NCBI GenBank assembly: GCA_965198235.1
Contig: OZ240248.1
Span: 2,080,001 to 2,144,000 of the forward strand
Direction: 5' to 3'
DNA length: 64,000 bases
Source of the DNA: Candidatus Poribacteria bacterium
GTDB lineage: Bacteria; Poribacteria; WGA-4E; WGA-3G
Part shown: piece after piece, positions 24,635-37,854 of the stretch
Layout of the letters: each line of letters starts with the position of its first letter
Numbering within the stretch: position 1 is the first letter of the stretch
Notes under the pieces: generated by a model
Seen by the model: only the letters and a program-made list of their open reading frames with translations
What the model was told of the DNA's origin: nothing
Databases searched by the model: none
Made by a program: the position numbers and the translations under genes

Positions 24635-24718
24635 GTATCACGTTGGCAGACATTCATAGCATAATCGCAAGGTTATGTGTCTGCCTACCCACTCTGAAGG
24701 GGTTAAAAAGCGCGATAC
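24635..24718 (+). ncRNA. Structured 5' leader RNA of tnpB (E1)
   Basis: Nested stems, a GCAA tetraloop and a possible pseudoknot; conserved with compensatory changes in E2. Confidence 0.65.
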
Positions 24719-24728
24719 GTGAACTCCA

Positions 24729-26701: not shown

Positions 26702-26874
26702 AATTTTTACCTCTCTATTGGAAAATACGTTAACCTTATCTAACCTTCCGAGACTAAAACCCAATCCTTTAGGTTTGGGATACAGTCTGTCCCTTGTGAA
26801 TGAGACCGTGGGTCTCTGTTGAAAAAAGACTTTCGGAAAGCACCCCACACAGTGACTGTGTCGGGTGACTTTCC

Positions 26875-26903
26875 GTGACTTTTAGCCAAAAATGTGGTAT
26901 AAT
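26875..26903 (+). promoter_or_regulatory. tnpB E2 promoter
   Basis: GTGACT-17-TATAAT with extended TG. Confidence 0.7.
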
Positions 26904-26910
26904 TAAGAGT

Positions 26911-26990
26911 ATCACAGTGGCAGACAGTTCAAGCGTAATCGCAAGGTTACGTGTCTGCCTACCCACTTGAACGGGGTAAAACTCTGTGAT
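26911..26990 (+). ncRNA. Structured 5' leader RNA of tnpB (E2)
   Basis: Homologue of 24635-24718 with covarying stems. Confidence 0.65.
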
Positions 26991-27002
26991 CTGTGAGATA
27001 CC

Positions 27003-28217
27003 CTGCGAAACACAAAACACAAACTTTTCAAGGATAAGACGTTGCGTCACCTGCACGACGAGTGCAATATCTCTGGCGTTGTCAAGAATCACTTCCTTGC
27101 GCTGTCTATGCGATATTACCGCCGCTATGGGAAAGGCGTGTCGTATTCCAAAATGTCGAAGCATTTGACGAAACTGAAGCGTCTTGAAAAATACCAGCAT
27201 TGGAATATTCCCTACTCATGGGCGTTGCAAAATGTTCTCAAGCGTCTGGAAACCCAGAGTTTCAAAGAAATAAAAACGCTCGGTAGAGGTCACCCGAAAT
27301 TCAAGTCCTGTCAGAAACACAAAGGGATGACGTTTCGCGGTGAACAGGTCAAAATAGAAAAAGTGCTGGACGCGCAAAAACACGAGAGGAACCACCCGAC
27401 GTATAAAATCCGACTCAACGGTCGTTGGTATCGGTTTGCTCTGCACCGTGAAATCAAAGGCATCATCATTGAAGTTCATGTAACGAGGGACGCACTCGGA
27501 GATATGTATATCACCCTGACAGAAGACTATACCGAAATTAAAATTGAACCCAAGACGGGTCAAGCTGAAGGGTTTGATTTTGGTATTAAAGACTTCTTGA
27601 TCGGCAGTGATGGTCATAGATATATGTCTCCGATGTTCTACAAACAGAATGCTGAAAAGTTGGCGACAGCACAAAAGGCGTATTCTCGCAAGGTCAAAGG
27701 TTCTCAGAATCTCGAACGCGAACGCAAGAACGTTGCACGTATCCATAAGAAGGCTGCGAATCAGAGAGCAGACCACCATTGGAAACTTGCGATAGAACTT
27801 TGTCGTCAGTTTGACATCCTGTTCTTTGAAGATTTGAACCTTCGCGGCATGAAAGCACTCTTTGGCAAACAGGTATCTGACCTTGGTTTTGGTGAGTTCT
27901 ATCAGAAACTCAAACACCAGAGTCACAAGCGTATCCGCTCTGTGCTGAAAATCAATCGGTGGTCTCCCACCACAAAGTGCTGTTGTGTGTGTGGAGATAA
28001 AAATGAAAATCTCACGCTATCAGATCGTCACTGGACGTGTCCAAGTTGTCATACACACCTGGACCGCGACGAGAACGCTGCTATGAACATTCTTAAGGAA
28101 GGGATAGCTTCCTTTGGGTTAGGAGTTGTAAGACCTATTGTTTTGTTTAACAAGATCGTAGGCACCTCCGTTGAATCTAACCATCCGATTCTGAATTCCA
28201 CAAATGCTTCTGCTTAA
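27003..28217 (+). CDS. tnpB: RNA-guided endonuclease TnpB (probable CTG start at 27003; ORF track starts at TTG 27042)
   Basis: GFDFGIK, FFEDLNL, CCVC/CPSC and DRDENAAMNI all intact. Confidence 0.95.
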   Translation: MRNTKHKLFKDKTLRHLHDECNISGVVKNHFLALSMRYYRRYGKGVSYSKMSKHLTKLKRLEKYQHWNIPYSWALQNVLKRLETQSFKEIKTLGRGHPKFKSCQKHKGMTFRGEQVKIEKVLDAQKHERNHPTYKIRLNGRWYRFALHREIKGIIIEVHVTRDALGDMYITLTEDYTEIKIEPKTGQAEGFDFGIKDFLIGSDGHRYMSPMFYKQNAEKLATAQKAYSRKVKGSQNLERERKNVARIHKKAANQRADHHWKLAIELCRQFDILFFEDLNLRGMKALFGKQVSDLGFGEFYQKLKHQSHKRIRSVLKINRWSPTTKCCCVCGDKNENLTLSDRHWTCPSCHTHLDRDENAAMNILKEGIASFGLGVVRPIVLFNKIVGTSVESNHPILNSTNASA

Positions 28218-28277
28218 TGATTGCAGAAGCCCAAGTCTTTAGACTTGGGTCTATCACAAGCCACTGTGCGGCACTTT
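28098..28277 (+). ncRNA. Putative omegaRNA of E2 (guide AAGCCACTGTGCGGCAC...)
   Basis: GGGATAGC...GTAAGAC-hairpin...GTTGA...right-end hairpin; boundaries approximate. Confidence 0.55.
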
Positions 28278-34447: not shown

Positions 34448-35590
34448 ATGAAGACTACCCATAATATTCTTTTCCAAGATGCACGAGATTTGAAAGAAAT
34501 TCCTTCAGAAAGCGTTGATCTGGTCGTTACCTCTCCGCCGTACCCTATGATTAGCATGTGGGATGAAATGTTTAGTCATCAGAATCCAGAAATTCAGGAT
34601 GCGTTAGCACGCGGTGATGGTAAACGGGCTTATGCGCTGATGCACGAGATTCTCGATTCTGTATGGAGTGAAGTATTCAGAGTTTTAAAGGATGGTAGAT
34701 TTGCTTGCATCAATATCGGTGATGCGACAAGGAAGGTCCGAGATGATTTTTGTTTGTATCCAAACCACGCGAGAATCTTGAATCACCTCTTAAGTATTGG
34801 GTTTTCAGCGCTACCCGATATCCTCTGGCGAAAACAGGCGAATACTCCGAATAAATTTATGGGGTCAGGCATGCTGCCTGCGGGTGCTTATGTGACGCTG
34901 GAACATGAATACATTCTGATAGTCAGGAAAGGCTCCAAAAGGGAATTTAGAACAGAGGACGAAAAAGAGAACAGACGCGAAAGTGCTCTGTTTTGGGAAG
35001 AGAGGAATATCTGGTATTCGGATGTTTGGACGAATATCAAGGGAACAGATCAGAGACTCCCGAAGGCGATGTCGCGATTGAGAAGTGCAGCATTTCCATT
35101 TGATTTGGCTTATCGACTGATTAATATGTATTCTGTGAAAGGTGATGTGATACTTGATCCGTTTTTGGGTACAGGAACCACGACCGCAGCTGCGATGACA
35201 TCAGGGCGCAACAGTATCGGGGTTGAAATTGACGAGAGTTTTCAACATGTTATATGTCCGGTTACACACCATATTGTCGATTTTTCAAACGATTATTTGT
35301 CCAACAGGTTGCTGAGACACGCTGAGTTTGTCAAGAACCGGATCCAAAACTCGGGAGCGTTAAAATATACAAATAAGTCTTACGGCTGTCCGGTGGTAAC
35401 GAGCCAAGAGCAGTTTATTTTGTTGAATGCCTTAAAATCGGTTCAAGCATGCGGAGATAATATCTTTGAGGTCATGTATTCAACGGAACCGCAAACTTGG
35501 GATGTGGAGCAACCCTCGGAATCCGTGGTCAGGAATAAAATGAAGGCTCACGCAAAACCTTTTCAACTCAGTATGTTGAAGGCACAGTGA
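34448..35590 (+). CDS. DNA methyltransferase, beta class (likely N4-cytosine)
   Basis: LVVTSPPY precedes LDPFLGTGTT. Confidence 0.9.
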   Translation: MKTTHNILFQDARDLKEIPSESVDLVVTSPPYPMISMWDEMFSHQNPEIQDALARGDGKRAYALMHEILDSVWSEVFRVLKDGRFACINIGDATRKVRDDFCLYPNHARILNHLLSIGFSALPDILWRKQANTPNKFMGSGMLPAGAYVTLEHEYILIVRKGSKREFRTEDEKENRRESALFWEERNIWYSDVWTNIKGTDQRLPKAMSRLRSAAFPFDLAYRLINMYSVKGDVILDPFLGTGTTTAAAMTSGRNSIGVEIDESFQHVICPVTHHIVDFSNDYLSNRLLRHAEFVKNRIQNSGALKYTNKSYGCPVVTSQEQFILLNALKSVQACGDNIFEVMYSTEPQTWDVEQPSESVVRNKMKAHAKPFQLSMLKAQ

Positions 35591-35615
35591 CTTCATATTG
35601 TACAAAGGGCTATGT

Positions 35616-36197
35616 ATGCAAATTAAATTAAAAAATGCTGAGATTCAGGAGTATGTGAACGCTCCTGCGTCTGACTTTCCCAAGTACACGACCCAATTAA
35701 TGAATATCGCAAATCAAAATTCTCAGGCTACGCGACCGAGGCACGTTGGACAATTAAGCGAACTGATTCAGGAATTTCCGGGACAAACTTTTGAAGAATG
35801 GGTTACATGGTATCAAGAACAATATCCCGATGCAATTGATGAGGCGACAGATCGAATAATCTCAATGATAGAAAACTTCAACAAAGCTATCGGCAAAATT
35901 GACCGAACCTTGGTTAAATCATGGGTAGAGGATCTTATTCTGGTCAAAACGTTCGCGGGACTTAAGTTTCAGGAGGCAATCCTGAAAAAGTTGGCGGAAA
36001 TAAGAGGCTGTGACTACCGTTTGGCAGAACCTCATGAAGAATCCCAAGGTATAGATGGGTTTGTAGGCGAAGAAGCGTATTCTATCAAGCCCAGCACCTA
36101 TGATTCAATGCCAACTTTAGCGGAATCTATAGAAGTGAAGATGATTGTTTACGAAAAAAAGGCGGATGGTGTAGTGTTTGAAATGCCGGAAGAGTAG
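35616..36197 (+). CDS. MjaI-family type II restriction endonuclease
   Basis: FPKYTTQLMN.ANQNSQATRP..VGQLSELIQEF and ESQGIDGF...SIKP; adjacent to the MTase. Confidence 0.82.
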   Translation: MQIKLKNAEIQEYVNAPASDFPKYTTQLMNIANQNSQATRPRHVGQLSELIQEFPGQTFEEWVTWYQEQYPDAIDEATDRIISMIENFNKAIGKIDRTLVKSWVEDLILVKTFAGLKFQEAILKKLAEIRGCDYRLAEPHEESQGIDGFVGEEAYSIKPSTYDSMPTLAESIEVKMIVYEKKADGVVFEMPEE

Positions 36198-36447
36198 GGG
36201 CACATCCATCTGTGGATCTTGTCGATACAAGAGTCTGTAGATTAGGTTGGACAGAATGAAAAAGACAGCTCTAAAGGAGATGCAAGAATGGCTCACGTTT
36301 GGAGAAAAAAATATAAAAGCCGCAATAGAATCCTGGATAAATTCTACACGAAACAGGAAGTAGTCAAAAGGTGTTTAGATGAAGTGAATAAATTACCTTA
36401 CCTATATGATTGCGTGATAGAACCGTCTGCGGGGGATGCTGCTTTTT

Positions 36448-36862
36448 GTGATAGACCCCACCCTAAAGGGCGAGGCTTCCGCGATTTCTGCGGAAGCTTT
36501 CATGCGATCAACGACCGCTGCTTTCTCTGAAAGACTTATGCAGCCTACTGCAACAGACGCTACCCCGACTGCGACACAAAAGTGTCCTTACGAAAAGTTT
36601 GTAATGCGTCATGTCTCGCAACAATCGTGTTGGGCCTTGAGTCCGCTATCCACGAAAAACGCATGTCGAGCTGCGATTTATTGATAGATGACCGTTTTCA
36701 GAGCTTTACACTATAGGAACGCTATCAAGAGCTTCGCAACTACAGCCTCTATAGCAACCTTACACTCTGAAATTATTATAGCAGATTCAACAACTTGTGT
36801 CAAGAAAAAACAGCGTCTACATCTCCAAGCTAAAGCATGGAGTTTTGACGCTGAAAAGGTTG
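36448..36862 (-). mobile_element. 415-bp non-autonomous IS200/IS605 element E3 (promoter plus omegaRNA-like region, no tnpB/tnpA)
   Basis: Minus strand reads TTAT|CAACC...AAAA-CTCCATGCTTTAGCTTGGAG ... GAAG-CCTCGCCCTTTAGGGTGGGG-TCTATCAC|. Confidence 0.9.
36775..36803 (-). promoter_or_regulatory. Perfect sigma70 promoter inside E3
   Basis: TTGACA-17-TATAAT. Confidence 0.8.
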
Positions 36863-37510
36863 ATAAAAATATCGAACATGACACCAAAATAGGAATTGAT
36901 ATTGATCCGCGACATGATGAGATTATCAAAGATGACTGGTTCAATTACAATATTAGTGAAATGTATGAGCGCGTATTGGTTATAGGGAATCCGCCGTTTG
37001 GTCAATATCAGAAGCTATCTTCAAAATTTATATCCCATGCCCTCTCATTTCGTAATGTCCAAACAATTGCTTTTATTTTGCCAGATGTTTATAGGAAACA
37101 TACACGGCAAAAAATATTGCCATATCATTGGAGAATAGTCTCCATTACTGAATTAGGAAGGAATTGTTTTACATTAGAAGGGAGGGAATATCATGTGCCT
37201 GCAAGTTTCTTCATTTTTGATAAATCAGAAGGAAAAGATTTAAGAGTTAATCCTAATGCCTACACAGAAACGAATGATTTTAGATTCTCCAATAAAGATG
37301 ATTTTGACATATTTGTATTTGGTGCTTCTCCAAGAAGAATTACAAAAACTCCGACACCAAACAATCGAGGATACTTCCTTAAGTCAAAAATTCCAGTAGA
37401 AGAGTTAATGTCTAAAATCAAAGCAGTTGATTGGAATGGATATTCTTGTGCAAATGGCGGTGTATATTGGCTAACAAAATTTGAATTTTTGGAACAATAT
37501 ATAAAATGCC

Positions 37511-37744
37511 ATGAACCCAATAGAACTAACAGTCTCCGATGATGGGGCGACGACATTTGTTTTAACACATGCAGAAATGATGTTAGAAATGGATAAGCTT
37601 AAAGCCTCTCCCGCACATGGAACTCGAAAAGCTTTAGAAGATAATAAAACTATAGAATATATGATGACTGTAAAAAGGGGTTCCGCGGATTGGGATAGAT
37701 GGATTAGCAACTATCGCAAAGAGGATGATATTTTTCAATTGTGA
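37511..37744 (+). CDS. Hypothetical protein
   Basis: 77-aa ORF overlapping the MTase 3' end; may be a gene remnant. Confidence 0.4.
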   Translation: MNPIELTVSDDGATTFVLTHAEMMLEMDKLKASPAHGTRKALEDNKTIEYMMTVKRGSADWDRWISNYRKEDDIFQL

Positions 37745-37854
37745 AACAGAATGAAAGAAAAAGATCGAAGTATTATGAACATTTTGACCGCGTTTTTCTA
37801 TTCTCACTGCGAAGCAATGTCGCCCCGCTGGGGCTGCGGAAAGAGTCCCTGTCT

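Follow-up and report, generated by a model that had tools for sequence, protein, structure and literature searches.

A gene-less IS200/IS605-type element of Candidatus Poribacteria carries an omegaRNA, a pseudoknotted leader and a homolog of a hairpin found inside the tnpB reading frame

A gene-less element of 415 bp with IS200/IS605-type ends was located on the minus strand (36862-36448) of the window, the 64,000-nucleotide stretch of DNA that was analysed. The new finding is a hairpin directly before RuvC-I in the tnpB reading frame, a homologous copy of which lies beside a pseudoknotted leader in this element. Gene-less elements of the IS200/IS605 type whose omegaRNAs are used in trans are already known from the available text of 10.1101/2023.03.14.532601, PMC10691335 and PMC3119063. 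A description of a RuvC-I-adjacent tnpB hairpin or of this leader was not found in literature listings or in the available text of 2026 reviews, the search covering openly accessible papers. The element is probably a selfish non-autonomous IS200/IS605 element, a PATE with an omegaRNA, for which both TnpA and TnpB would be supplied in trans. Its hairpin may serve TnpB as a recognition or loading signal. The determined features were the following:

36863-36866, minus strand: target motif TTAT, transposon-adjacent, in host DNA (methyltransferase codons); the junction was fixed by the empty alleles of 11 relatives.
36813-36862, minus strand: left end with DNA guide 36846-36843 and subterminal hairpin 36842-36823.
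36775-36803, minus strand: sigma-70-type promoter, 12/12 consensus positions, 17-nt spacer.
36670-36772, minus strand: leader domain 1 with outer stem 36772-36696, a conserved internal loop and two pseudoknots, supported by covariation; no Rfam match.
36604-36664, minus strand: domain 2, stem 36664-36659/36609-36604 carrying the bulged hairpin 36654-36626; register of the window copy set by eye.
36573-36594, minus strand: conserved linker just 5' of the omegaRNA, resembling tnpB codons in a by-eye comparison.
36448-36572, minus strand: omegaRNA scaffold, which finishes with the right-end hairpin 36476-36455 and includes the right DNA guide (36479-36476) and the cleavage tetramer (36451-36448).
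36428-36447, minus strand: predicted guide, identical with flanking host DNA and matching the donor joint.
36288-36447, plus strand: 5' part of a type II DNA methyltransferase gene split by the element; its motif I has the change Gly51>Ala.
36863-37542, plus strand: remainder (3' part) of the methyltransferase gene; a deletion of about 420 bp at 37529 takes the place of the final codons.
37529-37744, plus strand: C-terminal remnant (about 70 of about 196 aa) of a gene located downstream of the methyltransferase in relatives.
26740-28257, plus strand: E2, a tnpB-only element that has its target motif and right end in common with the mini-element; its family is the presumed cognate one.
27546-27575, plus strand: hairpin inside the E2 tnpB frame, in the codons directly before RuvC-I; homolog of domain 2 of the mini-element.

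The initial annotation had described a protein-free 415-bp element with a TTAT target and named ends, and this was confirmed, including the end tetranucleotide. The perfect promoter that it proposed was also verified, as the only perfect one of the four sites obtained in a promoter scan (shuffle mean 2.2); a -10-like hexamer was read by eye at the promoter position in the related elements that were parsed. Several properties correspond to those of PATEs. Subterminal palindromes were present at both ends and terminal inverted repeats were absent. The insertion lay 3' of a constant tetranucleotide, no target duplication was present, and the end guides matched the cleavage motifs. No transposase or TnpB gene was carried, the length being too short to code for one. 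The pairing of end guides with cleavage motifs is the rule in IS200/IS605 elements.

A BLASTN search of the genome revealed a second copy at C1:3503221-3503635, which was 414/415 identical, had unrelated flanks and was preceded by TTAT, and a third copy at C1:4641661-4642065 with 78% identity, together with partial relatives. The element was thus not unique, a point that had been listed for checking. Both additional copies were situated outside ORFs, and the genome contained at least four mini-elements and two remnants. Since the near-identical copy sits at an unrelated site, the comparison strongly supports that the element is mobile and has moved recently.

In a DNA search, 80 of 101 genomes of the same family were matched at E<=0.001, many of them at the ends only. 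From 70 loci and five genome windows 55 complete elements (358-476 bp) were parsed, some of which are the same insertion in sister genomes; six further candidates were dropped due to the absence of the target motif at the expected place. TTAT was present in 54/55 parsed elements, a partly circular count as the boundaries were set on the motif and the six elements without it were dropped. The left DNA guide was an identical tetramer in 51/55, and the right guide tracked the end tetramer in 39/43 and 10/11 elements of the two main end types. The family was multi-copy and polymorphic. A covariance model of the interior matched 52/99 genomes of the same family and 0/51 genomes of other families of the phylum; although it was trained on one leader class, the other class was also detected in this genome. 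A second interior model had matches in 37/112 genomes. An exact pattern gave 25 matches in GTDB, all in Ca. Poribacteria and 21 of them with the right end within 300 nt. The interior RNA was followed by an omegaRNA in 30/30 model-matched loci, as read by eye and with several of the loci being training sequences, and at least three scaffold types were distinguished.

The interior RNA in front of the omegaRNA is about 170 nt long and comprises the doubly pseudoknotted leader and the hairpin. In domain 1 the inner segments of the internal loop pair with the 3' tail, the two pseudoknots being formed by 36740-36734 with 36676-36670 and by 36728-36718 with 36696-36681. The cognate halves gave -7.7 and -12.5 kcal/mol versus -5.1 and -8.5 kcal/mol for swapped halves. 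In the alignment of class B leaders 95% of the cells were paired (slid controls 32-47%) with two-sided changes in 21/44 pairs, and in that of class A 92% were paired with two-sided changes in 8/43 pairs; both structures were derived from the very alignments scored, a procedure that favours them. Folding of the interior as a single sequence gave a stability not above that of shuffles (z -0.37). Rfam scans of the interior from the window and 12 related loci gave no match to a riboswitch, ribozyme, IS605-orfB motif or any other family. A 'Poribacteria-1' motif is not mentioned in the main text of PMC5737381, the supplement of which could bear on the leader. The leader, which covaries well and lacks a catalogued counterpart, is a doubly pseudoknotted RNA suitable for structural studies, and its role is most likely the protection of an untranslated RNA. 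Behind the conserved linker a small, variable hairpin (36587-36573, minus strand) is located.

Two earlier assignments in this region had to be revised. The stem-closed leader exists as a stem, which is merely the outer stem of the larger pseudoknotted domain. The letters of the supposed vestigial tnpB start are present, but they form the 3' strand of the stem in domain 2 and pair with 36664-36659; the string of ATG plus three codons occurred in 2/24 aligned rows (alignment A1), and in L002 a compensatory change was found in its stem. Judged from the sequence, the real tnpB remnants of the element are the mid-gene hairpin and the 3' end. A reading of domain 2 as a double T-loop, which would be T-box- or L1-stalk-like, was dropped, as the mutual information (MI) analysis showed pairing of the 'bulges' with one another in distant TnpBs.

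Additional forms of the interior RNA were observed. A third, shorter leader class with the same domain 2 hairpin and omegaRNA was present at C1:1567380-1567677 (plus strand) and in L025, L026, L065 and L066; in the former copy the promoter was present and the left end was not visible. The element at C1:~2377110-2377440 (minus strand) had both ends; its interior contained a sequence resembling part of domain 1 on the opposite strand, and an omegaRNA could not be recognised in it. In L016, L017, L018, L108 and L256 the interior RNA, or else only domain 1, occurred with its own promoter and without transposon ends or an omegaRNA. These end-less copies occupy one syntenic site in several genomes, and those of L016, L017, L018 and L108 are situated upstream of what we take to be a DUF368-like membrane-protein gene. 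They are possibly a donor or a domesticated copy.

The hairpin of domain 2 connects the mini-elements with tnpB genes. In the ORF-less elements it (helix 10) was paired in 100% of the cells with two-sided changes in 3/3 pairs. Model R1 gave no leader homolog in 30 full-length tnpB loci (it also missed the stand-alone copies L016-L018 and L108), and its weak matches (E about 0.5) inside two tnpB genes fell on the codons before the RuvC-I aspartate. With nucleotide HMMs of the interior, tnpB loci were matched only at non-significant E values, and a domain-2-only match in G071 fell outside any tnpB gene. Among 32 distinct E2-family genes, the synonymous constraint in the hairpin window was 0.76 compared with a mean of 0.37 and was exceeded only in the omegaRNA overlap. 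The third bases of a Thr and an Ala codon paired in 32/32 genes with five pair types (shuffle mean 21, maximum 28; 0/20000 shuffles). When the filter was loosened, five of the 1128 control column pairs also passed, four of them via one G-rich column and one within the omegaRNA. The relatedness of the sequences means that the covariation and pair counts overstate independence.

The same hairpin was recovered from distant proteins. In 53 distinct distant TnpB segments, a set that excludes the close Poribacteria-like loci L175-182, L184 and L230, the top four MI-APC pairs were those of this hairpin, with 72-92% pairing even across amino-acid changes, and the covariation extended to TnpBs only 36-42% identical to the query. 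A further 62 TnpB segments from phage contigs and six plasmids were bimodal: 29 had 5-7 of the 7 pairs, 33 had 1-3 and none had 4. The hairpin was present in a Geoalkalibacter gene and absent from Bacillus, E. coli and Fusobacterium genes. As many TnpBs lack it (33/62), the compared sequences indicate that the hairpin is clade-specific and does not simply follow from the protein motif. Synonymous constraint in E2-family tnpB had secondary peaks at codons ~191-200 (0.62-0.67) and ~265-283 (0.55-0.57). The latter surround the RuvC-II glutamate (window ~27820-27870), which is where the available text of PMC10278001 puts the inhibitory mRNA region of AmaTnpB.

In three element types, the hairpin had the form seen in the presumed cognate TnpB family. 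The type of the 3' bulge of domain 2 followed the end type in 11/11 and 37/43 mini-elements, as in the matching tnpB families. The mini-element C1:2520604-2520987 had 18/20 nt in common with the hairpin of the tnpB at C1:2531875, the omegaRNA of which resembles that of the mini-element. The window copy, its twin and L002 had a divergent form, in which the geometry and 5/6 of the E2 loop bases were kept, as judged by eye. The hairpin parser left 3/55 rows unparsed, all of the window-copy subtype, and the homology of the window-copy hairpin is based on alignment and the by-eye register.

These relations can be read in different ways. The element could be an ordinary PATE with an omegaRNA, where the hairpin has a function in the full-length message only, for instance in a translational pause or stability, and is an inherited spacer in the mini-elements. 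PATEs arise through internal deletion (PMC3119063, in its available text), the closing stem is freely remodelled with a divergent window copy, and descent alone explains the family matching. However, the hairpin and the omegaRNA are about 500 nt apart in the gene and yet adjacent in three element types that share leader classes, and the hairpin retains compensatory changes within the ORF-less elements; this explanation is considered unlikely, though it is the strongest of the competing ones. It is clearly less probable still that the hairpin acts in single-stranded DNA, as a signal that the top strand, once excised, would give to TnpA, to TnpB or for the priming of replication, in both full-length and mini-elements. 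The motif does occur in both classes, and the G-U/G-T pairs show top-strand structure only, the top strand being the transcript and the excised strand alike. Against a DNA role, the hairpin is missing in many TnpB elements (33/62), it follows the TnpB/omegaRNA family and not the left-end type, and in the mini-elements it lies within a transcribed pseudoknotted RNA.

The omegaRNA-like block proposed in the initial annotation was supported by covariation, as 89.7% of the cells were paired with two-sided changes in 14/33 pairs and 0/500 shuffles reached the covariation score. The fold ends at the right end with a 3' pseudoknot. The relative L030 matched Rfam HgcC with E 0.0011, below the gathering score, and the sole Rfam match of the window copy was sot0042 with E 0.07.

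The need for TnpA and TnpB in trans, suggested earlier, agrees with the gene content: the element has no genes, and the genome contains TnpA genes with matching ends as well as E2-family tnpBs that could serve as helpers. In total 35 TnpB-domain matches and six Y1 matches, three of the latter beside tnpB, were detected in the genome. Two TnpA-bearing elements share the target motif and the left guide. The right end of the element is shared by 12 full-length E2-family genes, with a clear TTAT in 10/12, and the E2-family proteins keep RuvC D/E/D. E1 and E2 had both been named as partners; the ends and the scaffold fit the E2 family, whereas E1 differs from the element in target motif and scaffold. 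The E2 family is therefore presumed to be the best candidate TnpB partner by ends and scaffold. The omegaRNA of the element lacks a hairpin found in that of E2, and no tnpB with the same scaffold as the element was found among the 35 genome matches or 30 family loci. The start codon of E2 is CTG where a 99% paralog has ATG.

Between promoter and start codon, full-length tnpB elements have a pseudoknotted 5' leader of another kind (24635-24720 and 26909-26999, plus strand). It matched 25 places in the genome, relatives had two or more additional variants, and an Rfam scan of these leaders gave no match. In E2 a hairpin insertion of about 48 bp was observed in the -35 region, also in the copy C1:2575491 (window 26828-26880; altered start codon 27003-27005, plus strand).

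In the preferred reading of a PATE using helpers in trans, a Y1 TnpA encoded elsewhere would excise the element and insert it 3' of TTAT, and the promoter would yield an RNA of about 330 nt, composed of leader, hairpin and omegaRNA and running past the right end so that the flank becomes the guide. These two steps together are regarded as very likely. An E2-family TnpB would then load the omegaRNA in trans and cut the donor joint after excision, resulting in the element being copied back, which is likely although less so. The element itself would be a collapsed tnpB transcript that kept two RNA signals of its cognate message, the mid-gene hairpin and the omegaRNA. The structure of the hairpin was determined as described above; its role as a family-specific site recognised by TnpB for loading or 5' processing is proposed tentatively, with somewhat less than even confidence. 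A more general proposal is equally tentative: TnpBs of the broad clade may recognise a family-specific hairpin in their own coding sequence, making their natural RNA partner bipartite, and the gene-less parasites may hijack the nuclease by joining a protective pseudoknotted cap to a cognate hairpin and a cognate omegaRNA, exchanging hairpin and omegaRNA together to change the helper family. Whole-gene covariation with 20 usable genes gave no long-range contact between hairpin and omegaRNA. A wider question is how a gene-less guide RNA competes for a TnpB that normally matures the guide from its own message, and the retained hairpin is a 30-base, directly testable handle on it. If the hairpin is a recognition or processing signal, codon-optimised TnpB editors of the clade lose it unknowingly, and its addition to the guide cassette could change TnpB loading.

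The evidence for RNA consists of contig depths from two metatranscriptome runs of one study. The depth over the element was 334-1011 compared with 8-9 in the flanks in run X1, and 106-226 compared with 3-5.5 in run X4. The element was thus about 35-fold deeper than its flanks in the RNA-library contigs, which show neither strand nor transcript ends. In runs X2 and X3, with the library type not on record, the element was at most about 2-fold over the flank depth, and the contigs reached 36844-36846. Copy-specific RNA contigs extended beyond the right end by 51 and 39 nt, and the high-depth RNA contigs listed ended at 36724 and 36759, short of the promoter. The element is apparently transcribed through the omegaRNA into the flank, for which these depths are support, not proof. 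RNA-library contigs of the third-copy type and of the short-leader type were also present (loose ends 36595 and 36482), and other mini-elements seem to be transcribed as well.

The high depth would also suit an RNA acting mainly as a decoy, which sequesters or inhibits TnpB and damps cleavage by the many full-length elements. According to the available text of PMC10278001, a region of AmaTnpB mRNA inhibits cleavage, as shown in one ortholog, and a pairing of this region with the omegaRNA is proposed. As here, a portion of tnpB coding mRNA appears as RNA in a TnpB-omegaRNA context, its action being shown there and proposed here. However, that region adjoins RuvC-II and not RuvC-I, whereas the present hairpin covaries before RuvC-I, is conserved in a broad clade and is kept in gene-less elements. 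Moreover, the 3' pseudoknot of the omegaRNA and the ends are intact, as for an active guide, and a decoy as the main role is judged to be very improbable.

With the PATE-like minimal IS200/IS605 elements carrying an omegaRNA (Meers et al., bioRxiv 10.1101/2023.03.14.532601; PATEs defined in PMC3119063), the element shares the lack of genes, the subterminal palindromes, the insertion without target duplication and an omegaRNA that would need TnpB in trans; relative to the available text of these sources, its own consensus promoter, the doubly pseudoknotted leader of about 100 nt and the mid-gene tnpB hairpin are found here only. Stand-alone omegaRNAs of OMEGA systems, for which function in trans has been reported (summarised in the available text of PMC10691335), are likewise mobilised and effector-less in genomes with effector loci; in contrast, the scaffold here is of the TnpB type and is preceded by two conserved structured domains. 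IStrons (bioRxiv 10.1101/2023.11.20.567912, as far as its available text goes) are also IS605-type elements with an extra structured RNA upstream of the omegaRNA. Here, however, the Rfam scans of the window and 12 related loci gave no group I intron match in the element, and the identity as an IStron was ruled out on this ground together with the antisense insertion and the internal promoter. Because the insertion is antisense to the gene and the RNA start is internal, IStron-like repair by splicing would be excluded.

The interruption of the methyltransferase is in itself ordinary. Excision in silico resulted in an ORF of 279 aa, which aligned without gaps to 11/11 intact relatives with 90-93% identity. 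An intact relative with 92% identity matched PADLOC MTase_II with E 5e-31, and together with motifs I and IV this profile match identifies a type II DNA methyltransferase; a Pfam search of the protein gave no match. Five residues of the restored protein were found in none of the 11 relatives. Among them is the Ala at position 51 in motif I, where 11/11 relatives have Gly, and this change is also a mismatch at guide position 9 to all 11 empty alleles. The deletion of about 420 bp removed the last codons of the methyltransferase and about 127 codons of the downstream partner gene. The partner is putatively a restriction endonuclease; a family profile search with it gave no match. The initial annotation had stated that excision rebuilds an intact methyltransferase, and this holds for the frame and not for the enzyme, considering Gly51>Ala and the deleted C-terminus. 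It had also stated that the guide targets exactly the restored allele. The match to the donor joint was confirmed, but such a match is automatic for any insertion of this type; in a genome search beside TTAT, no targets of the predicted guide with >=8 nt were found except the donor joint.

A reversible off/on switch of the methyltransferase, as had been suggested, would draw on the restored frame and on co-occurring strains with empty alleles. It is contradicted by the altered motif I with four other private substitutions, by the deleted C-terminus and partner gene, and by the location of the other two copies outside ORFs. Furthermore, most of the about 50 close orthologs listed had an unbroken frame of 271-321 codons, and the insertion was absent from 11/11 orthologs inspected. 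The proposed check for an excised junction gave no same-strain junction in the contigs of four runs, contigs being known to drop rare variants, and the sole empty junction in these runs belonged to another, ~96%-identical strain. A switch is thus scarcely credible. Since motif I is altered and the tail and the partner gene are deleted, the methyltransferase fits better as a landing site where insertion is tolerated, as part of a restriction-modification pair that has decayed.

Upstream of the interrupted gene, at 34448-36197 (plus strand), an N4/N6 methyltransferase and an MjaI-like endonuclease with open frames were located. The neighbours of the interrupted gene vary among the relatives, like a variable defence cassette. 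At 37767-37839 the contigs of three runs skipped 71 bases of a palindromic intergenic repeat, which is a small polymorphic repeat.
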